From Candidatus Omnitrophota bacterium (GTDB lineage Bacteria; Omnitrophota; Gorgyraeia; B26-G9), in contig JACQZH010000042.1 of assembly GCA_016213925.1 (NCBI GenBank), positions 1-57,816 on the forward strand: DNA of 57,816 nucleotides, given 5' to 3'. The notes beneath the pieces were generated by a model, which saw only the letters and a list, made by a program, of their open reading frames with translations, was not told the origin of the DNA and searched no databases. Every line of letters begins with the position of its first letter. Position 1 is the stretch's first letter. Shown one piece after another: positions 31,351 to 53,897 of this stretch. The translations under genes were made by a program, and so were the position numbers.

Positions 31351-31356
31351 GATACA

Positions 31357-31686: not shown

Positions 31687-31735
31687 TACCCTCACGCGCC
31701 TGTGGCTCGCAAGAGCCCCGGTTCGCATGAGGGTA
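31687..31735. repeat. compound hairpin adjacent to attL
   Basis: TACCCTCACGCG / CGCATGAGGGTA outer stem enclosing GGCTC-GCAA-GAGCC. It would follow tRNA-His directly in the empty site. Confidence 0.6.
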
Positions 31736-31737
31736 AT

Positions 31738-31746
31738 AAATGGGGT
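31738..31746. repeat. attL core
   Basis: AAATGGGGT, followed in the recombinase frame by RWLSRVRLALISNPAPYNPLFYQS*. Confidence 0.75.
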
Positions 31747-31835
31747 CGCTGGCTCAGCCGAGTTAGACTGGCTTTAATATCAAATCCAGCGCCTTATAAT
31801 CCGCTATTTTACCAAAGTTAATAGAGAAAATACAC

Positions 31836-31941
31836 TCATATTTCAATCAGCTGGCCGTCTTCTACGGCCATTACGCTCTCGCCGAAATATTCTTCAAATC
31901 TCTCCGGACGCTCTGTATGGATCGAACCGCCGCACTTTGAC
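31836..31941 (-). pseudogene. C-terminal remnant of an MBL-fold/RNase J-like gene
   Basis: Reads IHTERPERFEEYFGESVMAVEDGQLIEI*; adding one base restores VPIHTE, which is typical of beta-CASP C-termini. Confidence 0.45.
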
Positions 31942-33267
31942 CTAAGCCGGTATGCAAATTTTTAATTCGGAATCGAATATTTTAAGCGTTTTGCCATTTG
32001 CGCCATTAAAACAATTACACTCTTCCAGAATATGTTGCAGATTATTTTTCTGTTCTTCCTTTTTTAACAAAATATTTAATGCGCGGGGCGTATCATTAAA
32101 GTCGATTTTCAGCTCATCAGGAAAGGTAGTTTTAGGAAAATTCTTATATTTCCATTCATAATTAATACAACATTCTAATTTATCAGTATCTTTTGGTGTA
32201 AATTCAACTAATGGCCTGCTCCACATTGATAGTTCATCGGCAAATATAAGAAGAGTCGCGATTGGTGTTTTTAATTGGCAATTGTGATCAAAAAAATGCC
32301 TATGGTCTTCCGATACATGACCGAGATGAAGATATTTTTTTCGTTTAGTTAAATCATGCAATAAACAAGCCTCGGCGGCTATTTGAAATGCAATATACAA
32401 CTCTGTGTTGATTATCTGAGATTGATAAAGATCTTCCGCAATATCCAACACCATTAATGATGAAGCCACGGAATGATTTAATGGAAGGCAATCGTGAATA
32501 AAACCACAGGGGATATTTTCCCGCCTCATCTTTTTCAATCTTTCATCTGATTCTTTATCAAGGTCTTGTTTAGTACGCTGATACCACTCATGATGTTCAA
32601 TTATGAACCGTGCCAACAAACTTTTATTTATTACCTTGCTTCGTATTTTTGTAATATCCATAGAGTCGCAACCAACCAGATTCAATTTAAAAAGTCTTTC
32701 CTCATAGGTACGTAAAAATTTATAGCCGTAACCAAAATCATGAAAAATAGCTGCTAGGAAAACAGCGGCCGACATAATAGTTTGTTTTTTATCTTCATGA
32801 AAATATATTTTCTCCTCTTTGCACCATTGCTTAAAATGAGCGCAATCAAATTGCCACTTCACCATAGCATCATTCCAAAATTTATGGAATAATTCATCAC
32901 AAACAAAAGTTACTTTAAGCATATGCACGAAATGATCCCTATAGTCTGAATCTTCGGGTTCCACATAATTTAACCACTCGATATACGCAAGTTCTTCAAT
33001 GTGTTGTGCCAAAGGAGGAAATACCTTACTAAAAACTACCGAATACGCTAAGGCGCAGTATTCCATCTCATGAAAATAATTAGACGGAACTGATTCTTTC
33101 AACTTTTCGAATATAAAACACTTATTTTCTGACTTATTCCTAAATTCTCTACCCGTAACATAACGCTCAACGTCTATCATGTCATCGAAATAAGTCACAT
33201 TATCTTTAATAAGCCCAGATATCCACTTCCAAAATTCTTCATTGGAAAAAGTGGTTTGCTTAGTCAT
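31942..33267 (-). CDS. HD-domain phosphohydrolase (gene 3 of the candidate defence cassette)
   Basis: YRDHFVH, AAIFHDFGY, NHSVAS, LLHD, LLIFADEL, giving the H...HD...H...H...D pattern. Confidence 0.8.
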   Translation of the reverse strand: MTKQTTFSNEEFWKWISGLIKDNVTYFDDMIDVERYVTGREFRNKSENKCFIFEKLKESVPSNYFHEMEYCALAYSVVFSKVFPPLAQHIEELAYIEWLNYVEPEDSDYRDHFVHMLKVTFVCDELFHKFWNDAMVKWQFDCAHFKQWCKEEKIYFHEDKKQTIMSAAVFLAAIFHDFGYGYKFLRTYEERLFKLNLVGCDSMDITKIRSKVINKSLLARFIIEHHEWYQRTKQDLDKESDERLKKMRRENIPCGFIHDCLPLNHSVASSLMVLDIAEDLYQSQIINTELYIAFQIAAEACLLHDLTKRKKYLHLGHVSEDHRHFFDHNCQLKTPIATLLIFADELSMWSRPLVEFTPKDTDKLECCINYEWKYKNFPKTTFPDELKIDFNDTPRALNILLKKEEQKNNLQHILEECNCFNGANGKTLKIFDSELKICIPA

Positions 33268-33295
33268 TTGTAAATCCCATTTTTATCATCTTCAT

Positions 33296-34225
33296 CTATA
33301 TTTTTTCTATCTCTAAGCACCATTTTTGAAAAGGAGTAGGGTGCTCACGGCTCTCTGGACTATTGATCAAGTGATTGACAGTTTCTAGTATTTGCTCTAT
33401 ATCAAATTCCTCAGCCAGAGATGCTGTATCTTTAAGTTTATCAAGAATTTTTTCGTCTACTTTGCGCTTTTCTTGTAAGGACTTTAAATCACTCAATATC
33501 TCTGTTAATTTGAATGCTGGATTGCGTGATCCAGCGGCCGAGAATTTATTAAACAGAATGCTGTTCGCCTTTAACCACTCTTCACGCACCTCTTTATTTA
33601 TGGCTACATATATTTGCGATAATGTTGAAAATAAAGCACGGTAGTCAGGTCTATCCGGGGAAGTAACAAAAATTGAGTGCTTCTTGAATTTATATTTTTC
33701 TATTTCATTGAATTTTATCTCTCGCATGGCCTGGGACATACCGTAAAGACCCGGAGGAGTATCGATAATGAGTGTCTCAAAATTATTCTGCGCAAGAAGC
33801 TCTAAAATATCTCGCATCCTACTTCGAAAGAAATGTAGCCTCTCCTCTTGAGAGATTAAGGCAACAATGATTTTAAGATCCTCAAATATAGAACTAGAAG
33901 GCATAAAGAAAATTTTCTTGTGCTTAGCAATAGGTATGCAAAAATCGCTTCCAACTCGCTCGGGTTCCTTTTTATATTGCCTAAACACTAACGGATCGGA
34001 TAAAAGCAATTCATTCAAATAGCGGACGTTATTTTTTTCTTTGCTAAAAATATCAACAAGGCTTGTTCCTGTTATATCGCCATCAATAATAAGTGTCTTT
34101 TTGTCTTCTTTAAGTGCTACCCATCCGGCTTTAGCCAATGCAACAGATGTCTTACCTACACCGCCTTTTTGGGAATGTATCGTGTAAATTTTAACTTCTG
34201 TTTTTTGTTTTTGAGGTTCCATCAT
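33296..34225 (-). CDS. ParA/MinD-family ATPase (gene 2)
   Basis: Deviant Walker A SQKGGVGKT, LIIDGD, IIDTPPG, NK. Confidence 0.9.
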   Translation of the reverse strand: MMEPQKQKTEVKIYTIHSQKGGVGKTSVALAKAGWVALKEDKKTLIIDGDITGTSLVDIFSKEKNNVRYLNELLLSDPLVFRQYKKEPERVGSDFCIPIAKHKKIFFMPSSSIFEDLKIIVALISQEERLHFFRSRMRDILELLAQNNFETLIIDTPPGLYGMSQAMREIKFNEIEKYKFKKHSIFVTSPDRPDYRALFSTLSQIYVAINKEVREEWLKANSILFNKFSAAGSRNPAFKLTEILSDLKSLQEKRKVDEKILDKLKDTASLAEEFDIEQILETVNHLINSPESREHPTPFQKWCLEIEKI

Positions 34226-34237
34226 TTTGTTCTTTGT

Positions 34238-37200
34238 TTAAGATAAATCATTTAAAATACGGCGAAAATTTTCTCGGCTGCTTAATGGAACATATGATAA
34301 AAATGACTCTAAAACTGGAGCCATCCTTTTTAATATATCCCGCACTTTTCTATTATCTGCCTTATTAGCATTTAATACGGGTGTTAAGACGGCGTAATCT
34401 CCGCCAATCAGAACAAATATCAGTAAGTAGCTAATGATTAATTCATTTATTTCATCATTGCAAAGCAGATAATCAATATTCTTGAATTGTTCGCAAAAAA
34501 CAGGTGTCCACGTAAGATTCCTTTTTATTTGCAAAAACAATAATATTTCCGAGAATGCCCCACAATTCGACGATGCCAAAGGAAGTTCAAATCCGCAAGT
34601 TTGCCTTAAAATCGTATTATCCTTTTTAAATGCGTCCAATTCATTAGGATATTCCTTCTCTTCGTGAGACAATAAAAATACTTTTAATGAAGAAATTACC
34701 ATGGTAACGATTGGTTGCTGGCTACCCTTGATATACTCAGAAAGCTTTGGCAGTTCTGTTGTTAGGAAATCTTTAGCTGAAGTAAATTTCGCAAGATCGC
34801 ATACCTTTTCAGCATCTGCAAGCCCTTTATTAACTTTTTCTCCTAAAAAACCAATTGCTTCCCCATAATATTTTTTAAAGAAACCTGGAACAGATTTGGA
34901 CAATGGTATATTCCAATGCAATCCTAAAATCTTGGAACCTTCCGGAATTTGACTGTTTCCAGTCCATATATCTTTTGCCAGCTTATTCATGATCGTATTG
35001 CTAATATGCGGGTTGAGCGCATCTATGGGAAACCTAAGACCTTTCAACGCATTATTGGATTCAATATCTCCGTCCTCTGCTATAGCAAATAATGCACAAA
35101 CAGCATAGCTCAATAAGTCCGCCTTATTGACTGTGAGATACCTCGACGCAGCAAAACTCGGCTTTGCATTGATAAAGTGATGCCTAAATTGCATCAACGA
35201 AAAGACGTTTTGTTCATTTTTTAGAATACTACTTATGTATGCGGCTTTGTTTTCCGTTGTTAATTTTTCACCTGATTTCGTAATACTAATAACAGTTTCT
35301 CGAGCCATCCACCAAGCAAGTGCAACTTTTCTCTCATCATCATAATCGATATGCATGTTAAGATCGAGATACCGCAAGTAGTAAATTGCCAATTCCCTAC
35401 GTAACGACCATATCAATTGCATAAGCGCCATTTCTGGTATATGCAAATTATTTTGTGGCTTATTAGCAAATAATAATCTTTCAAAAATTGCATCTAGAAA
35501 GTCATAAAATTCCTTGTTAGTAAAATCACTTTTAGCATCATCTTTTGCATCAGCGCGGGCATTAAGAACTATTTCCAGTATCAAAAGCCACGCTAAATGA
35601 TCTTCTTTTTTAAAATTCTCTATCCACTTTTTTGTAAGTTCCAAAATTTCACGGGAAGATATACCATTTATCGTATCTTTTAATATCGCGTAAATACCTT
35701 TTTGAGAAAAATAAGGCACAAAATATACATTATCCAAATACCAATTTAAAATACTTTCAAGGTCATCATTCCCCTGGATTTTCTTCTCTATTCTTTGCCC
35801 AATAGCGTCTTTATCAAATGGATCGTCAAGCAATAGTGGTAAACTACTAATAATCGATTCAGTACCGGGCTCAAGCGCACTTTTTAACGCCATACCTATA
35901 AATGCTCGGCGATCTTTACTGGAAATACGTTGATCGCTCAATTGCTTTAGCATATACTGCGCATAGAGAAAGTCTTTAAGTAAAGAATCTGAAATTTCAC
36001 GGGCAGCAAGTGGCCAAACGAATGGTTTTTCAGAAACAATGTTATCGTACCGATCTTTAATTATTTTCTTGGTGTATCCAGAAATAAATGTGGCATCTAA
36101 TAATTCATTTGCGACGGTTTTTCGTATTTCTATCGAATCTGCTCCTATTAAATCATGAAGAACAAGCAGCTCCCCGCCTTTTTTTTCAGAAGGAGGAATA
36201 AAAATAAGTGGGCCTGCCTTGAAGTCTTCAACAGTAGCCACAGCTCTTTCGGGTGGCATCTCAGACAAAGCGCCTACTATATCCTTAATTGCCTCCTCAG
36301 ACAATGTAGGTCGCGGCGATGAATCATCTTCTTTTTTACGAGAAATACCCACATCAAATTCCTGCAAATAGGGAATTAATCTTTCGTCAATTTGAGCCCC
36401 TTGCAAATCTCCATAAAATGCCCTTAGCATCTGTAATGTAATAATCTTGCCTAAATCTTTACTAAAATTATCCTTGATTCCTTTCTTCAAGAAAAATATT
36501 AATGTGTCGATCCTTTTTTCGTATGAAAAACCTAGACTGTCGAAAGCTTGATCAAGTAACTTTTTAAATCCCACAGGGCTTTTTTGGCCAATAATTCCGA
36601 TAAACAGATGTTGTATAATTGAGTTTTCCGTCATTGCCGTGATATTACTTCGAATATCTTGCTGCAAACCTTGTGGCCCTTGTGGGAAAGCACGTAGAAA
36701 AACTTGCCTTGTTATCTCATCTCGCTTCTCTTCACTAAATGCGGGATCTGTCCAGATATTTATGAGAGCGTCTATCCAGACATTCACCCACTGCATGTAG
36801 AATTTCACCCCACAAAGCGTTGGTGGAATTGTTGGCTCTCTACCAAGGAAAAGCCCATTATCTTTCATGCATTCATTACTATATTTAATGAGGGCTTCCA
36901 GCGGTTTCCCTAAAGGATTATTCTTATATTCTAAAGCAAAGAAAATGATTATTTCAGAAGTAGGTATTAAAAAACGGTAGCGCCACTCACATAATTTTAA
37001 GAAAGCTTGCGAATACTCTTCAAGTGAAATGATTTTATCTTCAAATAGGCTCTGTAGTAATGTATCAGACCCAAATTGCTTATTTATTGGGTGTTTTACT
37101 ATTTGCATCTGAATAAACCGGTCATCAACTAAAAGTGGCAGTTCTTTTCTTTCAGCCAACTGAAATGTTTCAACCGTAAGGATATCGTAAATATGAAGAC

Positions 37201-40200
37201 TCTTCATTTTTTGAGTTTCTTCTTTGATAAAAACGTGTTCCGGAATAAATAACCTATTGTTTCCTTTTTTAGTATCTTTGAGTAGCGCCAATAACTCCTT
37301 CTGCCATTGCGCAACTCTGTCAAAAAAAACAACCTCACGGATTTTCCTTTGGATATTTTGCCACACAGTCTTTTCTACAACAATTTTTAATCCAGCGTCA
37401 TTTATTAAATCAATTAAGTCGTATCGTTCGGCTAATTCTAGCGTAATCTCATCAAAAACTAATCGCACAGCCTTATCAAAGATATCATTTAGTCCAGTAG
37501 TTGTTATATCTTCTTTGTCCTGAATGATTTTCTTTAGTTCTAAATAACGTGCTTCGCGTATCCTACCTTTTTCATATAATCGCGAAAGAATCTGATGAAA
37601 ACGTATAACAATTACTGATGAATTTTCTGGAATCTCTTCCTTCTCAAGATACGCAGAAACTAAAGGAAGATTTTCTGCTTCTGCCAAACGAATGGCTAAT
37701 TTAACTTCGGTATCTTTATGTGAATCTGGAAGACTGATATGTTTTATCAAATCGCTATCGAATTTCTTTTCCAAGTTTTTAAATATTTTTTCTTGAGATG
37801 CCTGGATTGGCTTATACTTTTGCTTATCTTCTTCCAAAGCCAGATGCAGAATATCAGGATAATATATTGCATCAAATTTACTTATCAATTTAGGTATTAA
37901 TCCCAATTGGTGTAGCGTGATTAAAGCAGTGTAATCTATTACAATATTTTTTATATTCGAAGGGATACAGATAGGGACTAGTTTATTTTTTTCTACCCGA
38001 AATCCATTGGTCGAATATGTCGTAAATTCTGGTCTCGTTGATTCTTCGGGTAAAAACGCCAATGGCTGCGTCCGATACGCCCAATCCAGATATAGTGGGA
38101 TATTAAAAAAACTGCTGAAAAAATAACGCAAGGCCTTTCCTTGGCTATACTGTTCGCATAACTTTTTTCTAGACTCATAGCGACGATGAACCATATCCTT
38201 GATTTCATCCAGAGAAACAGCCCTAAATACCTGATCCTGAATTTTTCCTGCCTGTTTTAATTGTTCGAGTCTCATTAATGCCTTGTGAGCTTTTTCTTCT
38301 TCTCCGATCCGGAACCCCAAATCAACATATTCCAATAGTAAAGCTGGTTCATCCTGAAAACGCTCGAAACAATTATCAAGTGTTTCAAAAGCGCTTTTTT
38401 CTTTATCGCTAGCCCGCAAAATATGTGCCGCTAATCGTAGGCATTTCAGATTTACTTCTTTGCCACATTTGATAAATGCTTTTATTATTTCGATGGCTTC
38501 ATTATATTTTTCTTGTACTGATAGTACTTCTGCATAGCCATAAGCAAGCTCTGGATCTTGAGGATTATTTTTTACCAGACTATTCCATGCCTGCTCTGAT
38601 TTCGCATAATACCCCAAGTTCCTGGCTGAAATAGCTTTGTAATACATTGTTGTATTATCACTTATCCCCAATATTTCTAATTTTTCGGCGGTTTCAAAGG
38701 CTCCTTTGTCATTCTCCAATTTCATTTGAACCTTGAGCAGCTCTCGTAAAATAAATTGATCTGGATATATTCTTTGGCTCTCCCCAAGAAGCTGCTCCGC
38801 AATTTGATATTCACCTTTTTTTATAGCTTCTACCGCGTGCCGGTATTTACACAATATCTGCAAATGAGGCGGCGGATTTTGGGCTTCAATCTCAGAAATA
38901 AGCTTGAGCGCATCATCGGAATTGCCCTTCGACTCCTGATAACCTGCTTCCAAATATTTCCGCCACAAGCTGTCCGGAGAAAGATATTCATAAATTATTC
39001 TCTGCGATTCTTCTTGTTTTTTAATCTGATTACCAATGTCAAAAATAATTCCTGCGGCACGTTCTTTTTCTGTATCATCTGACGTAAGTTCTAATACTTT
39101 CTTGGCATTTTCCCAGGCATTTTTAGCATCATTCAACCTCTGACTCTGCAAAAAAGCCATTATCAACAATGCCCAGGATTGTTCGGGGTAATCGCCGGAA
39201 AGAGCGATAACTATACTTTTAACAATATCTTCATCGATTAAACTTCCTCTAGACGCTACATATTCAGCAACTTCGTGAGCAATAGGGCGAACTGAAATTA
39301 TATATTTTGCCGCCTTATCGGCACTCTTATAATCTCCGAGAAAATTCAAGGCTTGCATTTTTGTTACTAATGCGCGATAAGCAAAATAATAATCTTTTAA
39401 ACTATTTTTTATTGCAACCCCATATTCTTGGGAAAATATTTTTTCTGCACTTTCCACGGATTTTTCGCAAAGAATCTTTCCTTCGCTATCTATATCCTGA
39501 GCATAAACAACTCTATCAGTCTTGCCTGTGGATTTAAGTGCTCGTCTAAAATAGGCGTCTGACATAAACGCACAAACCTTATCGTAAAAATGCTCATTTT
39601 TATACAAAGAGGTTGCGATAGAATCATTTTTCTTTTTTTCCTCAAAATCTAATAAAAAATCGTTATACTTCTTCTCTGCTTCACTAATATTGCCTGTCAT
39701 TACCAAAATATATAATGCCTCTGCCAACCATGGGGTTTTTATTTCATTCTTCAAGATAAAATCAGATCCCATTTCAAACTTTTCAGTGTCAATCAGCAAA
39801 GTTAACCAAAAAGAAATGGTTTTATCATCCTTTGAATGAGAAACAAGATCAATTGATGCGTCCGCCTTTCCTTCAAATAACAAAAGTTTTGCTGTTACTC
39901 GAGCTAATCTTTCTTTCCACTTTGATTGGTTTGTAATATTTTGATAGACAGTATTGGCCTTATCATAATATTTCCGCGCCTCACTTATATATCCTTTGCG
40001 TTCTAAATTTAAGAAAACATCAGTCAATGTAATAAAGCCTTCCAATTTTGATTCTTCATTGAGTGCGTCATTTTTATCGCTTAAATAGCGCGATAATTCC
40101 TCGGCATGTTTCTTCATAACTTCTTGGGTAGGCATACATCCATCGCCCCACACCTTATTGCAAATTTCCTTTACTTTCGCATCGCAGACATCTGCAAGAT

Positions 40201-41152: not shown

Positions 41153-41196
41153 GTTATACCCGATTGCCTTTTATATCGTCAATCACCAGAGTTCGG

Positions 41197-43581: not shown

Positions 43582-44558
43582 GAGCATACTCCTGCGAGTT
43601 CACCATTAAATACTTTTTGTAGTATCGATTTTTTTAATTCTTCCAGATCCCTCAACTTCTGATGATAAATAACCTCGAGTCTTTTTGTTTCGACAGATAG
43701 AGCATCGAGCTTGGCGACAATGCATTTTTGTTCAGTGAGAGATGGGAAAAAACTGGAGTAGGAAAATAAATGTTCCCGATTAACCTTTGGCATACCCGCT
43801 CTAGCAGAACCTTTTATTGCAAAATCAGTAAACTCTTTTGTTAGGAGTAAGAAGTACAAAAAGTCTCTGTCTAGTATTGAAGCTATGGGTTTTAAGGGAT
43901 ATATATCTGCACTACATAAACCTGAAAAGTCTGGTCGCGCTACTTTCACTAAATATGGACGTATTTTGCTATAAAGGATCATTAAATTATTGAAAGTAAA
44001 TTTTCCAGAAATCAATTCTTCTTCTCTTGATGTTTTCAAATCAATCAAGCGCCCTGTCATGCTCTCAATGTTTGCTCCACCAACATGATATTGATCAACA
44101 TATAATTCTTCTCGTGGATCAATTAACTTTGAAGAGATTTCACACACTTCACCCAGTTTTTTTTCCTCCCATCCATCGCCCGGATTGGCAAAGACGCTCT
44201 GCAAATATGACTCGAAAAGCTCATGGGCGTTTTGCAAATGTTTTGATACTGTCTGCTTAAGATAGCCATCCAAGATGAGAAATAAAAACCGTGGTGAAAT
44301 ATTTTTAAAATTTAATAACACATAGGTTCTTTGATATGCCTCAAATTTCCCTTTGTAGTAACTAACCGCTCCCACATCTCCATTGCCAGCAATCAAAAGC
44401 GCTTCTGTATCAAATGAAAATTCGTCGCTATAGGTATGTTCTCTAGCGCATGTAAAAAATGGGAATTCTCCGTTTGGGTTTCCTTGATTGACATCCTTCT
44501 TGCCAGTTTTAATCTCACATACTTCCCCCAGTTTTTTCACTTCCCAGTTTTTCTTCAT
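43578..44558 (-). pseudogene. hsdS: type I specificity subunit with an apparent in-frame central deletion
   Basis: Two W..KKLGEVCEI repeats, but only the second TRD is followed by P.L.EQ..IV..LD. The first is fused directly to HLQNAHELFES near 44240; total length only 326 aa. Confidence 0.7.
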
Positions 44559-46009
44559 ACCAACCCTCGAATCGTCTTCATTATTTCCGCGCTCTCCTCA
44601 TCCAGCTTTTTCATTGAAGCCAAAATCTCTTTTGGCTCACGCAATACTGTTTCATCCTTTTTATGTGGATTCTTAACCGAGAGATCAAACGTGGTTTTAT
44701 CCACATCGGCCACACTCACAGTCCAAGAATTTTCCGAATCGGCTTTAGTCTTGTGTAGCTTTATAAAATCTGCCAGATCATTTTCATTAAGAGGGTTAGT
44801 CTTGCCAAGGTTTCGGTCAAGATTAAGCTGATAAAACCAAACCTTACGTGTCGGCACGCCTTTTTCAAAAAAAAGCACGACGGTCTTAACGCCAGCGCCA
44901 GTGAACGTGCCGCCGGGTAAATCAAGCACTGTATGAAGATTGCAACTCTCCAGCAAGAGCTTACGCAGGCTTGTCGAGGCGTTATCAGTGTTAGAAAGAA
45001 AAGTATTTTTGATTACCACACCAGCTCGACCGCCAGCTTTCAAGATTTTAATAAAATGCTGTAGGAATAAAATCGCGGTTTCACATGTCTTTATGGGAAA
45101 ATTCTGTTGCACCTACTCGCGTTCCTTACCGCCAAAGGGTGGATTGGCAAGGACGATTGTATAGCGGTCTTTTTCCTGAATATCCGCAAGGTTTTCAACC
45201 AGCGTATTTGTATGGACGATATTTGGCGCCTCAATGCCATGCAAAATCATGTTCATCGTGCCGATAATGTAGGCGAGTGATTTCTTTTCTTTGCCGTAAA
45301 AAGTATTTTTCTGGAGCGTTTGGGCATCTTTGGTTGTCAGGTTCTTTTTCGTCTTGAGATATTCGAAGGCTTCGCACAAGAAACCTGCGGATCCAACCGC
45401 GCCATCATAGATTTTATTGCCGATTTCAGGCGCGACCACCTTCACGATGGTTTTAATTAGCGGCCGGGGCGTGTAATACTCGCCGCCGTTTCTGCCCGCG
45501 TTTCCCATATTCTTAATCTTGTCCTCATACAAATGGGACATTTCATGCTTCTCGGCACTAGAACGGAAACGAAGCTCGTCAATTAAATTGATGACTTCGC
45601 GCAGGTTGTAGCCGCTTTGAATCTTGTTCTTAAGTTCGTTAAAGATTTCGCCAATTTTATATTCAATGGTGTCGGCACTCTCGGCATTGGTTTTAAACTT
45701 TTTTAGGTAGGGAAATAACTTGTGGTCGACAAAATCTTTCAAGTCATCGCCACCGAGGGCCTTGTGGTGGTCAAGTTTGCCGTCCTTACCCTTGGGAACA
45801 GCCCAGACTTCCCAGCGATATTCCGGGCTGATAATTCCCGTGTAGGTTTTGCCTCTTAACTCTGCCGCCGATTTCTTCTCCTGCTCCAGATCATCCAAAT
45901 ATTTCAGAAAAAGAATCCAAGAGGTCTGCTCCACATAATCCAGTTCACTACTGCAACCGGCATCTTTATGCAGGATATCGTCAATATTCTTAAAGGTTTG
46001 CTCAAACAT
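44555..46009 (-). pseudogene. hsdM: type I methyltransferase subunit M, interrupted by one in-frame TAG
   Basis: GEYYTPR, YDGAVGSAGF, NPPF; the sequence GGKERE-TAG(45115-45113)-VQQNFPI continues in the same frame. Confidence 0.9.
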
Positions 46010-46078
46010 TAGCCGTCCTTCTCTGTTTTATATGCTTCCCAGTGACCACTACGTCCTCTTGATGGCACCGCCTAAACG

Positions 46079-47292
46079 TTATTTCCCAATTATTTCCCCA
46101 TGCCCACCTTTATCTGGGCCGGTACGACGAATTTGCCCCTTATTTTGCATTTTACTTAGATGATATTTTATGCCTTCTTCGGTCAGGCCGATAACCACTG
46201 ATAATTCCTTCCGGGTAATTTGCGGGTTTTTCCTTATTTCTTCGATAATTTTCTGGGTAGTTTTCTGGGTAGTTTTCTGGGTAGTATCCTGAGCCTTTTT
46301 AGGAGCACTCTCGGCCTCTGGCCGATAGAATGTCACAACAAATCCTGTCTTGATATTCTCAAATGTCACCCGCACGCCCGCGGCTTTACATTCATCAACA
46401 ATGCGCTTAAAACCAGAACCCCAGCGTTCAATGTCTTTTGCGTAATAAAAAGTGTCCGCAATCAACGGGTTGCGCGGGATGCTTTTCTCTCTGCCTTTAA
46501 TAAATTCCTCCGGCGAGTGGTCATAGGGAAACTGTCCGGGATTGTATATCTCAATTCTATTGCGATAAATTGCCAGCTCATTACCGGAAGGATTGTTGAA
46601 ATCGCGATGGCAGAGGGAATTGATAATGGCTTCCTTCATGGCGCGAATGGGAACCTCCGGAATTTCGACCCTCGTGCTACCGGAAAGATCAGCGCGCCAG
46701 TTGATGTGCTCTTTGACATAAGTTTCACATTGAATAATTATGTCAAAAAGAGTTCCCTTGAAAGATTGGATATCCAAAAACGTCGTCTTTTCATCCGTGG
46801 CAAAGACAGCCGCACGCACCTCAATGCGATTGTCTTTACAAAAGAGCGCTCGGCCCGCGTTAAGCAGTTTTTTACCACTGAGAAGGTGAAGTAATTCAGA
46901 CATCTCCGATCCCCATGCATAAATGTAGTTATTTTTCTTTTCTACTAAACGCCTCAGCTCATTAACCGAGAGTTTCTTGTCTTCCTCCCCAGAGCCGAAT
47001 ACACGCCATCCTGCCCGCTAACTTTAACAATAATGCAATCCTTGCCCTGTATCTTCTTGATCTGAATGTCTGGATGTACCTTGGGCTCAATCCAATCGCT
47101 GATAGCTTTTGAAATATCATGCGGGGTCGATTTACCGATCTGCTGTCCTAAAACGTTTCCATCGTCTTTAATCCCAAAATAGACCGTACCTTTACTGTGT
47201 TTATTCAGCATAGCCCCCAAGGAGATAATCGCCTCTTTGAGTTCCGATGTTGATTTCTTAAGTTCTACAATTTCGCTTTCTGTGAATTTCAT
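46079..47292 (-). pseudogene. AlbA_2/Schlafen - HATPase_c_4 - HTH ('RecG-like') regulator, split
   Basis: N-part ESE.VELK, A..N..G..YFGI.DDG; C-part EAIINSL.HRD, NPG, PRNPLIA, IERWGSG and HTH; frameshift near 46990. Confidence 0.8.
46249..46284. repeat. 12-bp tandem repeat x3 (TTTTCTGGGTAG), encoding TTQK
   Basis: Seen directly; forms the linker before the HTH. Confidence 0.85.
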
Positions 47293-47330
47293 ATGTCATC
47301 CTTTTTTGCCCTTCTTTGTGCTCAATCTTA

Positions 47331-47359
47331 TTTACAAAAAGGGTATAAAACATTATAAT
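47331..47359 (+). promoter_or_regulatory. sigma70 promoter for the rightward backbone gene
   Basis: TTTACA-17 bp-TATAAT. Confidence 0.6.
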
Positions 47360-47411
47360 ATAAAAGATTAGGCATTGCTATCAAAATTTGCTGGATACAA
47401 AACGTAAATCC

Positions 47412-48506
47412 ATGAAAAATACACCGGAAAAAGATAATTTCACATATATCCATGACGACTATGAGGACTGCAATTTTTGCGCCCAGAAATACAAGGGCTA
47501 CAGCGTCTTCAAGTATTCGGGTGGCAGAAGCATTGATATAGAGTTCTGCCCCAAGAAAATGGACGCATTAGGCATCGTTGTGGACGCGGCATATTCGATG
47601 ACATATTACGAAGTCAAGCATCCGAAACTGTTCAAAAATCAAGGCATACCTGATGACATTCCATCATACGCTGATTATTTAAAATATGAGAATTTTATGC
47701 ATGACAAAGATAAAAAAGGATGCCTTGCGCTTATAAATAAAAAGGTTGCCGCTAAAAAGAACGGAGTTTTTCAGATCAAAACGATTCCTCTTAATAAAGA
47801 ATATCTGGATAATTGCATTGCTAATAAACAGGAAATGATTTTCTTAGGGCTACATGTACAATTAAGCAAAATCAGCGTCGCCAAGATAAACAAAGATGCT
47901 CCGCATGGAAGCGGCATTGACGAATACAAGGACATTAAGGACATTGATGAGCAAACAAAAAAGATCATCATGGGCCTAAGGCCGGAACGGCTTTATCACA
48001 TTCTCACTGCTTATCATACGCAAGAAACATTTGATGAGGGCGATGTCGAGAATTTTCTTACGGGATCAAAGGACTTCATTGAAGAAATAGATGAGGTCAT
48101 TCATTTCAAAGATTCTGATTTCAAGACGCTACTGGATAAAATGGCGCGTCTTTGCTTTTTGTGGAGAGACAAGCAGGACGTCTCGTCAGAATTTATAAAA
48201 GAGGCGAACGACTTCATTCTCCTCAGACGCAAAACGGAATATAACCCGATAGTCGAATTTATCGGGGTTTTCTTTGATGATTTAATCAGCGACGTCATCG
48301 CAAATAACCGGCTTATCGAGTGCAAGCATTGCCATTTATTGGCGGCTTATTTTCGCAATAAGAAGTTTTGTAGCAAGGCAACCGATGGCCGCAATTGCTT
48401 CGGAAGGCATCACAGCAAACAAGATTACCTGCGTCACAAAGGGAAAAGACTACCCGTAAAGCGGGCATGGATCAAAAAAGCTCGGCGAGAAATCCCCGGA
48501 TATTAG
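47412..48506 (+). CDS. hypothetical protein with a C-terminal CGNR-like zinc finger
   Basis: CKHC...KKFCS...C followed by a basic tail. Start at ATG 47412 preferred over TTG 47388. Confidence 0.6.
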   Translation: MKNTPEKDNFTYIHDDYEDCNFCAQKYKGYSVFKYSGGRSIDIEFCPKKMDALGIVVDAAYSMTYYEVKHPKLFKNQGIPDDIPSYADYLKYENFMHDKDKKGCLALINKKVAAKKNGVFQIKTIPLNKEYLDNCIANKQEMIFLGLHVQLSKISVAKINKDAPHGSGIDEYKDIKDIDEQTKKIIMGLRPERLYHILTAYHTQETFDEGDVENFLTGSKDFIEEIDEVIHFKDSDFKTLLDKMARLCFLWRDKQDVSSEFIKEANDFILLRRKTEYNPIVEFIGVFFDDLISDVIANNRLIECKHCHLLAAYFRNKKFCSKATDGRNCFGRHHSKQDYLRHKGKRLPVKRAWIKKARREIPGY

Positions 48507-48651
48507 CTCAACCATACAGAAACACCCCCTCTTTAAGATTTTTCTTTATATAAAGAAAATCGCAAAAATCCCGTCGTTTATCAATCTACAACATTTCTAA
48601 AACTACGCTAAACTTTACTCTGTAAGCAGGATTTACAGAGTTTTTTATTTT

Positions 48652-48858
48652 ATGGCAATGTTTGCCAAGCAGTTTAGCGGATCGAAAATGTTATCCAAAC
48701 AGGCAATCGAAGAATTTCAGGAAATCTACTTAAAGACCTACGGCAGAGAGCTGTCGTTTGATGATGCCGCGGAGCAGGCGCATCAGCTCATCCGCTTTTT
48801 AAAGTTCGCTTTAGGGTATCCGTTAGACTACCAGACAAAGGACGTGAATGATGAATGA
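48652..48858 (+). CDS. small hypothetical protein upstream of the primase (start may be 48688)
   Basis: LS..AIEEFQ.IY...YG..LS..DA helical pattern; overlaps the primase start. Confidence 0.6.
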   Translation: MAMFAKQFSGSKMLSKQAIEEFQEIYLKTYGRELSFDDAAEQAHQLIRFLKFALGYPLDYQTKDVNDE

Positions 48859-50896
48859 CCAGCGTATCAGCAAGATCTACGATTACAAGGACGCGGCCGG
48901 AGGCCTTGTTTTTCAGGTCGTCCGGTTTGAGCCAAAGGGCTTTTCACAAAGGCGGCCGTTCAATGACGGCTTTGCTTGGGGATTAACCGAGGGTTGGTAT
49001 CAAAAGAACGGTCAGGCGAATAATTATTACAGGATCAAAGACGAGCCCGCGAACAAGTCAACGCCGCCCCTCTCTGATGCGGTCTGGTTTGATGCTGTGG
49101 ATCCGGTTCTTTATCGCTTGCAGGAGGTGATGCGAGGCATTCAGGATTGTGAGACGATCTTTATTTGTGAAGGCGAGAAGGACGCGGACAATCTCGCCGG
49201 GTTAGGCTTTATCGCGACATCTTGCCCTACCGAGGCATTGCATGGATGCTGTGAGGCCGTGGTCATAGCCGACAAGGATGAGCCGGGACGAATACACGCC
49301 CATACAATAGCAGGCAGTCTTTGCGCGACGGGCATTCTGGTTAAGCTCATCGAACTGCCCGATATTGATGGCACACCGGTCAAAGATGTTTCGGATTGGT
49401 TAACCGCTGGCGGAACGCACGCGGCTTTTCTTGATCTCTTAAAGCAATGCCCGCACTGGACACCTTCACAAATAGATACCAATGCTTCTATCGCTCCGGA
49501 CTTACAAAACCTCATCAGTCAATACGGCGATCCATATTATCTGAGCAAGGACGGCGCTGTTACAGCTCTAAATCAAGCATTTTGGGCAAGCCTGCATCAA
49601 GCAGAACACATTCAACTCTTTGAGCCTGATGAACGGGAATTTTATCGCTACAATCCGGAAAGCGGACTCTATAGCGTTATTTCAGAAGACACAATCAAGC
49701 AGGAAATAGCCGCACGCATTCTTGATGTATCGCGAGAGCAAGGCTTGCCGTCACTTGAACGTAAACGAACCAACAGCAGTCAGAATCATATCGTGGCCCA
49801 GCTTAAAGGCATCAGCGAAAAAAAGAACGCCTTTCGTCGCGACAATACGATCGTTCATCTGGCCAATGGAGTGATCGTGTTTAAGAATAACGGCGAGGCG
49901 GACTTTTGCTCCTTCTCTCCTGATTACTGTTCACGCAACCAGTGTCCAATCCCTTTTGACGCCTCGGCGAAATGCGACCGGTTCTTTGATGAACTTCTTA
50001 TTCCGTCCGTTTCCGCTGATGACGCGCTTCTCTTGCAGAAATACACCGGTCTTTGTCTTTTGGGCAATAACCTCATCCAGAAACTGCTCATCCTTGACGG
50101 CAAGCCCGGGCGCGGCAAATCAACCTTGGCCTTGATCATTCAGAAGCTGGTTGGGCAGATCAATGTCACGGAACTACGCACTCGGCACCTTAGCGAGCGT
50201 TTCGAACTGTTCCGTTATCTTAAAAAGAATCTTCTTGTGGGCGTGGACGTGCCGGGCCAGTTTCTTTCAGAAAAAGGCGCTTATGTTATCAAAGGATTGG
50301 TTGGCGGAGATTGGTTTGATGCAGAGCAGAAATGCGGCACAGGAAGTTTTCCGTTTCAGGGCAATTTCTGTATCCTGATCACTTCCAATTCGCGTTTGCA
50401 GGTGCGCCTTGACGGTGATACCGGCGCATGGAAAAGACGGCTACTGATCATTCGATTCGAAGCACCTGCGCCTGCAAAAAAGATTCCGCACTTTGATGAC
50501 TTACTGATTCAGGAAGAAGGCAGTGGCATTCTTAACTGGGCATTGCAGGGATTGGGCCTGCTTCTTAAGGACATTCAGACCGGCGGCGACATTAAATTGT
50601 CAAAGGCACAGGATAAAATCGTTGAGGGCTTGCTTGCTGAAAGCGACAGCTTACGGCACTTCCTTATAGAGAATGTTGTTCAGGATGAGGAAGCGGACCT
50701 TTCAACTACGGAGATCGTGGAGGCTTATGCCGAGTATTGCCCTTTAAAGGGATGGAACCCCAAGCCTATTACCGTGATTCACCGTGAGCTCGAAAGTTTA
50801 ATGCTGGAATTGTTTGGGACGTCAAAATCACACTCGATAAAGCGGGACGACAAAAGCACCAAGGGTTTTCGCCGGGTTGCGTTTAAGGACAAGTGA
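48848..50896 (+). CDS. phage/plasmid primase-helicase (Toprim + D5/P4-type SF3 ATPase)
   Basis: EGEKD and D.D Toprim motifs, KDVSDW, LANG, GKPGRGKST Walker A, ITSN, WKRRL. Confidence 0.9.
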   Translation: MMNDQRISKIYDYKDAAGGLVFQVVRFEPKGFSQRRPFNDGFAWGLTEGWYQKNGQANNYYRIKDEPANKSTPPLSDAVWFDAVDPVLYRLQEVMRGIQDCETIFICEGEKDADNLAGLGFIATSCPTEALHGCCEAVVIADKDEPGRIHAHTIAGSLCATGILVKLIELPDIDGTPVKDVSDWLTAGGTHAAFLDLLKQCPHWTPSQIDTNASIAPDLQNLISQYGDPYYLSKDGAVTALNQAFWASLHQAEHIQLFEPDEREFYRYNPESGLYSVISEDTIKQEIAARILDVSREQGLPSLERKRTNSSQNHIVAQLKGISEKKNAFRRDNTIVHLANGVIVFKNNGEADFCSFSPDYCSRNQCPIPFDASAKCDRFFDELLIPSVSADDALLLQKYTGLCLLGNNLIQKLLILDGKPGRGKSTLALIIQKLVGQINVTELRTRHLSERFELFRYLKKNLLVGVDVPGQFLSEKGAYVIKGLVGGDWFDAEQKCGTGSFPFQGNFCILITSNSRLQVRLDGDTGAWKRRLLIIRFEAPAPAKKIPHFDDLLIQEEGSGILNWALQGLGLLLKDIQTGGDIKLSKAQDKIVEGLLAESDSLRHFLIENVVQDEEADLSTTEIVEAYAEYCPLKGWNPKPITVIHRELESLMLELFGTSKSHSIKRDDKSTKGFRRVAFKDK

Positions 50897-50897
50897 T

Positions 50898-51347
50898 ATG
50901 GGCTTAGATCTGTCCAGGTTAGAGAAAGTAAAGCGCCGGGGTTCAAACACAATAGCGCGCTGTCCGGCTTGCGCTGAATCAGGGAGTGACCGCAAGGGTG
51001 AGCATTTATTGATTAACGCTGCTGGTCAATTTGGCTGTGTCTTGTTCCCCGGGCAGAATGGCCAACAGCACCGCCAGCGCATATTTGAGTTGGCAGGGGT
51101 CAAAGAAACGACAAGCAAAGGCTTTGAAGTCAGGAAACCCCTCTCTCCTCCAGCAGGTGCTTCGGTTATTCAGAAGGATATTCTGGGACATTTGGGACGC
51201 ATCCCATCAACTCACGCCCGAAAGAGTTTTGAAAATCATCTAAGTGAAAAAGAGTATAAAGCGCAAGAAGAACCGACTGATAGTGTCCCAAGCGTCCCAG
51301 AGAGTGAGAATGACTGTTTAGACGAGTTGGGGCCAAGACCATTTTGA
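50898..51347 (+). CDS. small zinc-ribbon protein (primase zinc-finger-like)
   Basis: ARCPAC...D...H...FGC in the N-terminal half. Confidence 0.6.
   Translation: MGLDLSRLEKVKRRGSNTIARCPACAESGSDRKGEHLLINAAGQFGCVLFPGQNGQQHRQRIFELAGVKETTSKGFEVRKPLSPPAGASVIQKDILGHLGRIPSTHARKSFENHLSEKEYKAQEEPTDSVPSVPESENDCLDELGPRPF
51183..51300. repeat. inverted TGGGAC iteron pairs (candidate replication origin)
   Basis: CTGGGACATTTGGGACGC (51183-51200) versus the reverse complement of 51283-51300, CTGGGACGCTTGGGACAC; 15/18 match around an A-rich spacer. Confidence 0.55.
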
Positions 51348-51361
51348 AAGGAGATTTATTC

Positions 51362-52030
51362 ATGTCCACAAAGAAACAGATCGAGGCAAACAAACAGAAC
51401 GCGCTTGTGTCAACCGGGCCGGTGACGGCTGAGGGCAAGGCTCTTGTGTCACAGAACGCTGTTAAGCACGGCATCTTCGCCCGGGATTTGATTATCACAT
51501 CGGGCGATGGTAAGGAAGATAAGCAGGAGTATAACGAGCTTTTAGACGGCCTTATCGTAAGCCTTGCCCCTTCCGGACAGATAGAGTGCCTATTGGTTGA
51601 AAAGATAGCCGCTGATTACTGGCGCCTGCGCCGAGTATTGCGTTTTGAAACCGGCAGTATTCGTAAGCAACTCGATACGGCAATCGATGATTACTATAAT
51701 AAAATGGACTACTTTGGCAACAAAGAGCACAAAACCAATAAGGAAATTAACAAGGAAATGGCCTCTTGTAGGACAAACAATGACAAGCCCCGGATTGCCG
51801 AGCTGAAACAGGCCAAGCGTAAAAACAAGTACGCCGAGGAAGTTACAGTCAAAATAAGCAGTTTGCCTGCCGCGGAGGATTGGGACAAGGTCATCAAGTA
51901 TGAGAAGGCAGTCCAGCGGTCAATATTACAGAACCTTGCCCTATTGAAACGCCTGCAATCTATGCGATTAACAAAAAGAATTCTTTTTTATGAAACGCTC
52001 GGCGCCCGATATAGGCGACAAACTACTTGA
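51362..52030 (+). CDS. hypothetical protein with an 'AN..NA..STGP.T.EGK..S.NA.KHG' N-terminus
   Basis: AAGGAG RBS; N-terminal motif and W.L.R..R.E; function unknown. Confidence 0.7.
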   Translation: MSTKKQIEANKQNALVSTGPVTAEGKALVSQNAVKHGIFARDLIITSGDGKEDKQEYNELLDGLIVSLAPSGQIECLLVEKIAADYWRLRRVLRFETGSIRKQLDTAIDDYYNKMDYFGNKEHKTNKEINKEMASCRTNNDKPRIAELKQAKRKNKYAEEVTVKISSLPAAEDWDKVIKYEKAVQRSILQNLALLKRLQSMRLTKRILFYETLGARYRRQTT

Positions 52031-52083
52031 ACCAATCGGGAACACAAGTTATAATGTTTTATAACCTTAAAGGAGAGAAACCT

Positions 52084-52260
52084 ATGCCTGAATATTTAAA
52101 AATCCATGAAGCGGCGGACCTGCTTAAGATCACCAAGCAGACATTGCGCAATTGGGATAAGCAGGGCAAGCTAACGCCTCACCGCCATCCTCTCAACAAT
52201 TACCGTCTGTATAAGAAGTCTGATTTGATTAAGCTTTTAAACAAGATCGAGAAGAAATGA
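52084..52260 (+). CDS. MerR-type HTH protein, candidate recombination directionality factor
   Basis: I.EAADLL.I...TLRNWD..GKL...R...N.YRLY; AAGGAG RBS; ATGA overlap with the recombinase. Confidence 0.8.
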   Translation: MPEYLKIHEAADLLKITKQTLRNWDKQGKLTPHRHPLNNYRLYKKSDLIKLLNKIEKK

Positions 52261-53831
52261 TCGCCAAGCCCGTCAGATATTTTCTTTACGCCCGCAAGTC
52301 ATCGGAGAACGAAGACAAACAGGTCGCCTCCGTCCCCTCACAGATCGAAGAGCTCAAGAAGCTTGCCCAAGAGATGAATCTAAACATCGTTGAAATCTTC
52401 ACCGAGGAGAAATCTGCCAAGGCCCCGGGACGTCCGGTCTTTAGTCAGATGATCGCGGATATTCACAAAGGCCGCGCCGAGGGCATTCTTTGCTGGAAAT
52501 TAGACCGTCTGGCGCGTAACCCAATCGACGGCGGCACGATTAGCTGGATGCTTCAGCAATCGATTATCCGGCATATTCAAACATTCCAGCGCGCCTATCA
52601 CCCCACAGACAATGTTCTGATGATGAATCTTGAATTTGGCATGGCCAATCAATTCATTCTCGATTTAAGCGTTAACACCAAGCGCGGACAAAGAAATAAA
52701 ATTCAACAAGGCTGGCTTCCGCACAAGCCGCCGTTCGGATATCTCAACAATCTTTACAATCAACCGGATAAGCCGCCGATCTACCCTGACCCGGTATCTT
52801 TCCCGATCATGAAGAAACTTTGGGCGATTCTTTTGGAGAAACGCTGTTCCATTGACAAACTTTTTGATATCGCTCACGGGATGGGCCTAAAGATGGCTAA
52901 GGGCGCTAAGATGTCGAGCCATAACTTCTACCTGCTCTTTCGTAATCCCTTCTATTACGGCGCGTTTCTTTGGAATGACGAGGTATATCCGGGAAAGCAT
53001 GAGCCTATGATCACCAAGATAGAGTTTGATTTAGCACAAAAAATCATAAATAGCCGGAGTTTTCCTCGGGAGCAAACACACACTTTTGCCTTCACCGGCC
53101 TGATGCGTTGCGGAGAATGCGGGGCTTATATTACCGCTGAGGAAAAGTTTAAACACTTAAAGAATGGCGGCACAAATCATCACACTTATTATCGTTGCAC
53201 AAAAAGGATCAAGCGGGATTGCTCCGAGCCGCCTATACGATTAGAGGATCTTGAGAATCAGATCCGTGACATTTTAGGCAAAATAACCATACCGCCGCAA
53301 TTCCGGGATTGGGCGATAAAACAACTTAAAGTTGATCAATCAAAAGAAATAGTCGACCGCGATGAAATCACCAAGGCGCACCGGCATAATCTGGATGCCT
53401 GCGCGAAAAAATTGGACGCGCTTTTTAATATGCGCTTAAACGAAGAAATCGGGCCCGATGAGTACGCTAAGAAAAAAGACGATCTATTGCGGGAAAAGCA
53501 AAAATATGAGGAGTTAATCGGTGATACTCAGCAGAGGATCGAAACTTGGTTAGAACGGGCTGACAAAGCCTTCACTTTCGCTCAAACCGCTCAAAACCGC
53601 TTCGAAACGGGCACTTTGGAGGACAAGCGGTATGTTCTCTCGTGTTTAGGTTCGAACCTCGTCCTGACGGGCAAACAACTGCGATTTCAGGTCGACAAAA
53701 GCCTTGCTCTCTTCCAAGAGGTTGCCCCAGACGTACAAAGCCTCCACAACCGGTTAGAACCGACGCAACTCGTTGATTCTACGACCGATTGGGAGGCTTT
53801 ATATGCTCAAAATAAAAAATGGGGTGGATGA
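52257..53831 (+). CDS. large serine recombinase (integrase)
   Basis: YARKS catalytic Ser, SAK..GRP.F, LDRL.RN, PFGY, G.H...I, CGECG zinc ribbon, YYRC, coiled coil. The last codons (W-G-G-stop) lie inside tRNA-His. Confidence 0.95.
   Translation: MIAKPVRYFLYARKSSENEDKQVASVPSQIEELKKLAQEMNLNIVEIFTEEKSAKAPGRPVFSQMIADIHKGRAEGILCWKLDRLARNPIDGGTISWMLQQSIIRHIQTFQRAYHPTDNVLMMNLEFGMANQFILDLSVNTKRGQRNKIQQGWLPHKPPFGYLNNLYNQPDKPPIYPDPVSFPIMKKLWAILLEKRCSIDKLFDIAHGMGLKMAKGAKMSSHNFYLLFRNPFYYGAFLWNDEVYPGKHEPMITKIEFDLAQKIINSRSFPREQTHTFAFTGLMRCGECGAYITAEEKFKHLKNGGTNHHTYYRCTKRIKRDCSEPPIRLEDLENQIRDILGKITIPPQFRDWAIKQLKVDQSKEIVDRDEITKAHRHNLDACAKKLDALFNMRLNEEIGPDEYAKKKDDLLREKQKYEELIGDTQQRIETWLERADKAFTFAQTAQNRFETGTLEDKRYVLSCLGSNLVLTGKQLRFQVDKSLALFQEVAPDVQSLHNRLEPTQLVDSTTDWEALYAQNKKWGG
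53817..53825. repeat. attR core
   Basis: AAATGGGGT overlapping the tRNA-His CCA end and the recombinase K-W-G codons. Confidence 0.75.
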
Positions 53832-53897
53832 CGGGATTCGAACCCGCGGCCCCAAGAACCACAATCTTGTGCTCTAACCAGCTGAGCTACATCCACC
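53820..53897 (-). tRNA. tRNA-His (GTG)
   Basis: G-1 plus GTGGATG/CATCCAC acceptor stem, anticodon arm CAAGA-ttGTGgt-TCTTG, GGTTCGAATC, encoded CCA. Confidence 0.97.

Follow-up and report, generated by a model that had tools for sequence, protein, structure and literature searches.

An Omnitrophota island at the tip of a tRNA-His gene with its attachment site inside the end of a predicted serine recombinase gene

We analyzed a 57,816-nucleotide (nt) contig of a Candidatus Omnitrophota bacterium (GenBank assembly GCA_016213925.1, contig JACQZH010000042.1), hereafter called the window, in which the gene for a putative large serine recombinase, int, runs into a tRNA-His gene encoded on the other strand, overlapping its 3′ end. 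The two genes meet at the right end of a genomic island that occupies window positions 31738 to 53825 (22.1 kb) and sits at the extreme 3′ (CCA) end of the tRNA-His gene. The features at the two island ends, including the attachment (att) sites, are as follows.

52257–53831, + strand: large serine recombinase gene int in its integrated (short) form, 524 aa (Pfam Resolvase, Recombinase, and Zn_ribbon_recom)
53820–53896, − strand: intact tRNA-His(GTG) gene, the B′ arm of attB (ARAGORN; Rfam tRNA, 68.5 bits)
53835–53844, − strand: T-loop box GATTCGAACC in tRNA-His (motif search of the window)
53817–53825, + strand: attR core, right copy of AAATGGGGT, made of int codons K-W-G and the CCA end of tRNA-His
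31738–31746, + strand: attL core, left copy of AAATGGGGT (exact repeat; putative crossover dinucleotide GG at 31742–31743)
31747–31821, + strand: P′ arm of attP, the segment coding for the tail RWLSRVRLALISNPAPYNPLFYQS with its stop at 31819–31821 (reading frame; tail in homologues and in attL of other islands)
31689–31733, − strand: host side of attB (B arm), a strong hairpin (fold of −39.4 kcal/mol, z of −4.3)

The int product ends in DWEALYAQNKKWGG (..YAQNKKWGG), and its stop codon TGA (53829–53831) lies 12 nt within the tRNA gene at its 3′ end. Together with this stop, the final sense codons TGG GGT GGA are the antisense of the tRNA CCA end and acceptor stem, the Trp codon TGG being the antisense of the tRNA-encoded CCA. 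The window holds exactly two copies of the 9-bp core AAATGGGGT, on the same strand at positions 31738 and 53817. From 31738 onward, in the same codon phase as int, the sequence reads K-W-G-RWLSRVRLALISNPAPYNPLFYQS over 24 codons before the stop. The original prediction, made from the window sequence, held that the integrated gene ends NKKWGG on antisense tRNA-His sequence and that the core at 31738 continues in the int frame for 24 aa; we found its coordinates, frames, residue count, and stop to be correct. Since attP lies within int, the int frame necessarily ends differently in the two states, and the C terminus of the int product is state dependent.

The island boundaries were located by comparison with other genomes. 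A search for the left flank covered 41 genomes, namely, the source genome (2.27 Mb in 81 contigs) and 40 relatives, and found matches of 81 to 90% identity to some 50 to 60 nt (window 31677–31737/31738) in three relatives, G018, G036, and G038. In all three the match directly abuts the 3′ end of tRNA-His, i.e., these are unoccupied sites, which place the left end of the inserted DNA within or just past the 9-bp core. The prediction that the island ends there, with the crossover within the last int codons, is thus backed by the empty sites, and the different left boundary in relatives that would have spoken against it was not seen in these three. On the right, the last 300 nt of int share 97% identity with locus L001 from another genome. 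Beyond them, identity is complete over the first 8 nt on the tRNA side and falls to 74% over tRNA nt 9 to 76 and to 54% over the next 300 nt; this drop at the tRNA indicates that the mobile DNA ends at the tRNA tip. The nearest int loci come from metagenome-assembled genomes of Omnitrophota, and the L001 recombinase is 98% identical at the protein level. The attL junction was bridged with no differences by contigs of two public sequencing runs, X1 (31306–31783), which may be the source sample, and X2 (31345–32239). These data confirm the island as window positions 31738 to 53825 and support an intact tRNA-His gene in both the inserted and uninserted states.

By its domains and by a structural model of a relative, the int product appears to be a large serine recombinase, with catalytic, recombinase, and zinc-ribbon/coiled-coil domains all predicted to be present. 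Residues 9 to 152 matched PF00239 (E of 3e-19), with the serine motif YARKSSENEDKQ at residues 11 to 22, and PF07508 and PF13408 were matched with E values of 1.2e-6 and 1.2e-10, respectively. The Y, K, S, E, and Q of the serine motif (Y-x-R-x-S..Q) were invariant among 73 homologues. The AlphaFold 2 (AF2) model of a tail-bearing homologue, P0012, has long helices past the zinc ribbon (residues 347–394 and 400–451), and Foldseek aligned it with serine integrase-att complexes over approximately 510 to 530 of 535 columns (E of 1e-18), the matches being 9y66_A, 9dxh_A, 9tep_A, 9iu2_A, and 4kis_A (E of 8.6e-19 to 7e-12). The att sites of int are short, with 9 bp of identity, as in large serine recombinases. 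No viral relatives of P0012 were found in IMG/VR. Elsewhere in the source genome (contig C29, 14918–16138) lies a gene for another large serine recombinase, with 36% identity to int.

The overlap of int with a tRNA gene was found to recur widely. Most of the best 120 homologues inspected, out of 6,324, are 522 to 527 aa long with C termini made of tRNA-antisense residues, and 11 of the 120 are longer, ending ..W[GL][RPG][WLF]L..[VIF]R[TNM][CLY].. (the WGRWL..VRT.. tail). We fetched 185 loci from genome and metagenome collections, which came down to 162 once identical C termini were removed. In 80 of these 162 the end of the int open reading frame (ORF) overlaps a tRNA or transfer-messenger RNA (tmRNA) gene on the opposite strand. 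Fourteen kinds of target were seen: His (30), Asn (16), Gln (9), Lys (7), Ala, Trp, and Ser (3 each), Arg and Leu (2 each), and tmRNA, Asp, Tyr, Ile, and Met (1 each); in the relative L011, int ends in a tmRNA gene. Among the other loci, 12 stop at a contig end, 10 have an unmatched C terminus, and 60 have no called tRNA. Reading the C termini of these 60 by eye, we assigned the tail to 27 (30 including an F-R-T variant) and the T-loop-antisense DSN to 9, and none of the 27 tail-type loci held a tRNA gene. The same anatomy is present in Omnitrophota, Patescibacteria/Saccharibacteria, Elusimicrobiota, Margulisiibacteriota, Planctomycetota, and others, confirming that a large recombinase family shares the placement of attP within the end of int.

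The tail frame was also found at the far ends of other inserted islands, in four instances: two copies in genome G421 (WGRILNEVRTCLLEAA) and one each in G419 (WGGWLKQVRTCLLATH) and G420 (WGRWLSDFRNLMISQPTPFNPLFYQQA), each tail being followed by a stop codon. A tail of the form W..WL.RVR, whose consistent absence from homologues would have undone the original prediction, was thereby encountered in 11 of the 120 best proteins, in the 27 loci, and at these four attL ends. A strict back-translated tail pattern matched only the source genome and G041 among 401 Omnitrophota genomes, the pattern being too narrow to speak of rarity. A near twin of the window tail occurs at locus L027 (3040–3201, G041), an orphan attP-like site that holds the last ~40 int codons and the full tail beside an unrelated, oppositely oriented gene; neither an int gene nor a tRNA lies within 6 kb. 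The site may have arisen by deletion or may be an element mobilized in trans. At locus L319 (G421, contig C5), two near-identical P′-arm/tail segments lie in the same orientation ~1,157 nt apart, upstream of one island, pointing to insertions at the same tRNA-His that are tandem or remnant.

Tandem arrays were considered as the general origin of the tail forms. A second int lies near 1 of the 27 tail-type loci (L089, 2.5 kb downstream), and five genomes with tail-type copies held no further copy above 30% identity to P0012, G425 having two more matches at 24 to 29% identity on other contigs. Tandem arrays account at most for some of the tail-type cases.

The tail appears to be conserved largely as DNA. 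In almost all tail-type loci the DNA beneath its V-R-T residues is GTTCGAACC (GTT CGA ACC), which duplicates the T-arm box of tRNAs. Third-position entropies of the V, R, and T codons, taken over 15 sequences from a subgroup of 40% identity, were 0.35, 0.00, and 0.57 bit, compared with 1.0 to 1.7 bit for the other conserved codons (Pro −9 and Tyr −13); the near invariance of the third positions under V-R-T places the constraint on the DNA. These comparisons suggest that the V-R-T conservation is in large part that of a DNA recognition motif, the P′ half-site of attP.

The position of the box relative to the crossover differs between the two kinds of loci. Measured from a second copy of the motif further up in int, motif B (described below), the next box follows after 82 to 83 nt in 34 of 37 tRNA-overlap loci and after 87 to 88 nt in 19 loci without a tRNA, which are tail type by the reading of their C termini. 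In the window, the distance from motif B is 83 nt to the T-loop box and 88 nt to the P′ box across the virtual attP. Counted from the tRNA tip, the box lies at +18 versus +23 in the His group and at +16 versus +21 in an Asn-targeting pair. In the accessible text of Rutherford et al. (2013, PMC3783163), the zinc-ribbon motif lies 5 bp nearer the center in attB than in attP, and the 5-bp shift between attB and attP of large serine recombinases is found here between tRNA-overlap and tail-type loci. The zinc-ribbon domain of the integrase is presumably what reads the box.

The host side of attB carries a related sequence. The left flank holds GGTTCGCA (31720–31727), the mirror of the tRNA T-loop box, and in the empty-site layout 8 of the outer 9 positions of the two boxes pair. 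Their symmetry center is the GG of TGG (the CC of CCA), inside the 9-bp core, and because of this mirror symmetry we place the crossover dinucleotide at GG. The chance of such a mirror is about 1 in 1,000 by a rough post hoc estimate. The same box occurs at the same offset (−21 to −14) at attL of the G420 island. The hairpin in the left flank lies 10 nt beyond the tRNA CCA in the empty sites, is followed by a U-rich run on the tRNA strand, and is kept beside tRNA-His in G018, G036, and G038. The hairpin and U-run are probably the terminator of a tRNA Pro-Arg-His cluster. Insertion puts 22 kb between this cluster and its hairpin/U-run terminator (31655–31745, − strand), and no terminator-like sites were found on the minus strand within int. 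With the terminator displaced and none antisense within int, read-through from the tRNA operon could cross int in antisense when the island is inserted.

Further copies of the box were found inside int itself, following the 10-bp T-arm-like palindrome GGTT[C/A]GAACC.

53649–53658, unstranded: motif A, the palindrome GGTTCGAACC, read as G-S-N-L (third-position conservation)
53752–53761, unstranded: motif B, GGTTAGAACC, read as R-L-E-P (R-[LF]-E-P in the family; third-position conservation)
53548–53557, unstranded: a further copy with one mismatch (pattern search)

Codon use in both motifs is strongly biased. Among 118 loci, motif A has TCG for Ser in 113, GGT for Gly in 97, and AAC for Asn in 117. 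In motif B, Leu is TTA in 47 of 51 cases (90 loci), and the preceding codon ends in G in 115 of 126 loci. Some homologues read motif B in another frame (K-V-R-T-S) with the DNA unchanged. The spacing between motifs A and B is 102 or 103 nt in 65 of the 66 loci measured, and in tail-type loci the three boxes lie at −191, −88, and 0. The palindrome with up to one mismatch occurs 11 times in the window against 3.08 expected, a count reached in 0 of 100 shuffles. A genome-wide scan for two boxes 92 to 94 nt apart gave at least 120 stretches, including matches to neighboring tRNA genes, and therefore no clean census. This intragenic box array of fixed spacing appears to be a new feature; its conservation inside int across frames points to an unrecognized att-site architecture or mode of regulation in serine integrases. 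A MerR-like protein encoded directly upstream of int is an unlikely general reader of the palindromes, as subgroups with the full array have a 57- to 65-aa ORF in its place. Since the array is kept where the MerR-like gene is missing, the integrase is more likely to be the reader.

Taken as a whole, we judge it likely that the island was inserted at the tRNA tip by its own serine recombinase, with attP in the last codons of int and the tail as a DNA motif. The large serine recombinase would insert the 22.1-kb DNA at the CCA end of tRNA-His, the P arm being the 3′ coding sequence of int and the P′ arm what is now the far left end of the island. Crossover would take place within the 9-bp identity, centered on GG (the antisense of CC in CCA). 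In the inserted state, int stops two codons into the tRNA antisense; in the uninterrupted state, be it an excised circle or a tandem copy, it runs 24 codons into the P′ arm. The P′ box copies the tRNA T-arm box and is set 5 bp more distal to the crossover than its T-loop counterpart. The element would presumably still excise at present.

Several observations weigh against this interpretation. The P′ box of the window itself, GTTAGACTG (31762–31770), is degenerate and fits 5 to 6 of the 9 positions of GTTCGAACC. No mirror box was found in the P arm at −19 to −25, so that attP is no simple inverted repeat and the zinc-ribbon reading of the box rests on P′, B, and B′. Measured from the putative center, the box is 3 to 4 bp more distal than it is in the sites of Listeria integrases. 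Some of the tail-type copies are embedded in long chromosomal contigs (of up to 2.18 Mb) that lack a second int in the vicinity, so an uninterrupted gene is not always a free circle. For the element of the window, neither an excised circle nor an empty site was observed. Contigs from the Logan collection for runs X1, X2, X6, and X17 (one study; window 29000–34000) showed no loose end at 31738–31746; as Logan contigs drop rare variants, this is no evidence against excision. Terminal overlaps were absent from 39 whole-contig loci, which neither shows nor excludes circles.

The left boundary could instead be a chance match, with the inserted DNA truly beginning elsewhere. The 9-mer by itself is not significant, since 0.73 matches are expected in the window and two or more occurred in 16 of 100 shuffles, and no second copy of longer 3′ fragments of tRNA-His was found in the window with up to 3 mismatches allowed. 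However, the three empty sites put the flank 31689–31746 right against tRNA-His, the DNA to the right of 31746 encodes a tail shared across the recombinase family, and four other islands are arranged alike at their far ends, making a chance boundary extremely improbable. It is also conceivable that the island no longer excises, having become fixed and begun to decay, and that the frame continuity at 31738 is a relic of no present effect. Two cargo genes are broken, hsdM by an in-frame TAG and an AlbA_2/HATPase_c_4 gene by a split, the P′ box is degenerate as noted above, and the inserted junction alone was seen, both in the contigs of the four runs and in the source genome, where it occurs once. 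Against such decay, int is intact with all family-invariant residues present, and the 24-codon tail frame is open like those of G420 and G041. The 97% identity of the int 3′ end to the L001 element, next to a tRNA-His of only 74%, implies recent mobility. We consider a dead remnant unlikely.

A further possibility concerns the protein, namely, that the long (uninterrupted) and short (inserted) integrases differ in function, the tail serving as a determinant of directionality or a stability tag, perhaps in concert with the MerR-like protein. Only the protein of the uninterrupted gene can integrate and only that of the inserted gene can excise; with one isoform exclusive to each reaction, any difference would act directly on directionality. 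The tail is predicted to be helical (P0012 residues 520–535; mean predicted local distance difference test score of 81 for residues 521–530 in the AF2 model). In 21 anchored tail-type loci, the int frame is open for 11 to 42 codons past the crossover (median of ~31), compared with medians of 11 and 13 for the other two frames, and is the longest in 13 of the 21, these being related and not independent sequences. The distal tail ..P.P[YF]N.LFYQ[SQ](A) before the stop is common to the window, G420, and G041, with synonymous changes and ratios of nonsynonymous to synonymous polymorphism (pN/pS) of 0.38, 0.44, and 0.87 on only 10 to 12 synonymous sites, and a Leu-Leu after V-R-T-C is kept across CTN/TTG codon switches. 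Of 39 tails, 12 end in Ala or Val, which recalls the ssrA-like tags of integration-dependent immunity as described in the accessible parts of PMC4557955 and PMC3694055.

On the other hand, the best-conserved tail residues are those fixed at the DNA level. Past V-R-T-[CW] the tails diverge in sequence and length (1 to 32 more residues), and conservation is at background four codons after the box. The inserted forms accept any tRNA antisense, from a single G before the stop to ~20 extra residues such as ..ERGDLNPRPPEPQSGALSN, and the equivalent segment of the dsiB recombinase gene was judged unlikely to be functional in the available text of McMurdie et al. (2011, PMC3146451). The MerR-like gene, moreover, is not universal in the family. 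The original prediction had made its protein the partner of the two isoforms, and this part did not hold generally, as a different ORF takes its place in distant subgroups that share the anatomy. Selection on the tail as protein thus appears weak from these comparisons, and a functional difference between the isoforms is doubtful.

Equally tentative, and in our view improbable as a whole, is a combined model in which the family uses the T-arm box plus the acceptor/CCA end, the in-gene box array provides accessory sites, and integrate-only and excise-only isoforms form a state-dependent directionality switch. Boxes A and B (103 bp apart) and the P′ box 88 bp on would be "arm-type" sites, and insertion would remove the terminator of the tRNA operon and send read-through antisense into int. 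To our knowledge, arm-type accessory sites have not been described for serine integrases.

Phage Mx8 (intP/intX) and SSV1 carry attP inside the gene of a tyrosine integrase, and for Mx8 and mycobacteriophage BPs a functional difference between the two forms has been experimentally demonstrated. As in Mx8, SSV1, BPs, and the streptococcal element IME_Spy2096_SNF2, integration at our locus alters the 3′ end of the gene that spans attP. Unlike those of Mx8 and BPs, the isoforms of the window are known from sequence alone, and the conserved tail residues are explained by a constraint on DNA. The original prediction named precedents only among tyrosine integrases, but serine cases exist. As far as the accessible texts go, the 3′ end of Dehalococcoides dsiB always overlaps att, with the stop outside the island in ssrA or a neighboring island (PMC3146451), and IME_Spy2096_SNF2 has its recombination site inside the gene for its serine integrase (Coluzzi et al., 2017, PMC5357655).

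The DsiB islands, compared here through the accessible part of their published description (PMC3146451), share with the window a large serine recombinase (~540 aa) at an island end, there by a tmRNA gene, cargo with possible tandems, and an integrase 3′ end that overlaps att with its stop beyond the island. They differ in their target, ssrA at its T-loop region (repeat of 20 bp) as opposed to the CCA end of tRNA-His (identity of 9 bp), and in having a small serine recombinase partner, DsiA; a Pfam Resolvase search among the four ORFs upstream of int (48848–52260: primase, orf156, orf228, and MerR-like) gave no match. The same partial description reports no conserved tail, T-arm-box mimic, or 5-bp offset. 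No Dehalococcoides record was found among the 80 loci kept or among the two-box scan matches listed.

The phage large serine integrases (Listeria A118/LI, Bxb1, phiC31, and SPbeta) resemble int in domain order, short att sites, and a full-length structural match, and, in the accessible text of PMC3783163, in a motif that attP carries 5 bp further from the center than attB does. Their targets are protein coding or intergenic and their attP lies outside int, whereas in the window the target is a tRNA 3′ end and attP lies inside int. Also unlike them, the box of the window is a universal T-arm sequence, with extra boxes 103 and 191 bp upstream of the P′ box. Tycheposons of Prochlorococcus, cargo elements associated with tRNAs, bring a site-specific integrase along with primase or helicase genes of their own, as does the window island with its site-specific integrase and primase gene. 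By the part of their description available (Hackl et al., 10.1101/2020.12.28.424599), 27 of 937 carry a large serine recombinase and nearly all others a tyrosine one, and that text holds no mention that we found of int overlapping an att site. In the open texts searched, supplements aside, we found no account of a tRNA-tip serine integrase family, a T-arm-box mimic, or an intragenic box array. The overlap of int and att is already known for serine recombinases, and the tRNA-tip family, the box mimic, and the in-gene array appear to be new, judging from the texts searched.

Serine integrases are major genome-engineering tools, and every one of them has needed pairing with a rare natural target. 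If a family recognizes the near-universal T-arm box together with the acceptor end as its target half-site, this would account for moves among at least 14 kinds of tRNA and tmRNA genes in many phyla, and such a family would suit as a starting point for broad-host integration vectors. The tail also gives reason for caution, as a conserved peptide at the end of a gene can be the shadow of a DNA-binding site.

The remainder of the island comprises a cargo block on the minus strand and a conserved module that leads up to int.

31942–47292, − strand: cargo genes as a block (Pfam)
47388–52030, + strand: conserved core module upstream of int, with orf372, primase, orf156, and orf228 (Pfam, NCBIfam)
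48848–50896, + strand: P4-type primase/DUF5906 protein (Pfam, NCBIfam)
52027–52260, + strand: MerR/HTH_17 excisionase-like protein, 77 aa (PF00376, 5.9e-12; PF12728, 1.7e-9)

The core module recurs in 4 to 17 other loci by tBLASTn, tail-type ones included. The stop of the MerR-like ORF overlaps the start of int, and a MerR-like gene abuts int in 25 loci, making its product a candidate directionality factor or regulator on the basis of domain content and position. Distant subgroups with the same anatomy have no MerR-like gene and carry another small ORF upstream of int. It encodes a conserved protein of 57 to 65 aa (M.LS.KAIKEFKEIY..EFG..ISDEEAQE.G..L..LFK.IYRPIP) that matches no Pfam family and is likewise a candidate directionality factor; examples are L086 (5672–5863), L101 (5673–5858), L054 (5769–5954), and L080 (5667–5864), among others.

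The cargo encodes an HD-domain protein, a ParA-like ATPase, a SIR2-TPR protein, and a type I restriction-modification system (hsdR, hsdS, and hsdM). The hsdM gene is split by a single in-frame TAG at 45113–45115 (..GGKERE, stop, VQQNFP..). An AlbA_2 (Schlafen-type) domain and HATPase_c_4 plus HTH_24 domains are found in two adjacent ORFs with stops between them (46079–47292), a pair that looks like one broken gene. The 2,304-aa SIR2-TPR protein (34238–41152) has an N-terminal SIR2_2 domain, TPR repeats, and a subthreshold match to the PIN domain of the TPR-GreAB-C-PIN system, and is by these domains probably a defense protein. Outside the island, a thiamine pyrophosphate (TPP) riboswitch (29956–30067; Rfam, 61.7 bits) lies upstream of a Thi4-family gene (29059–29868).

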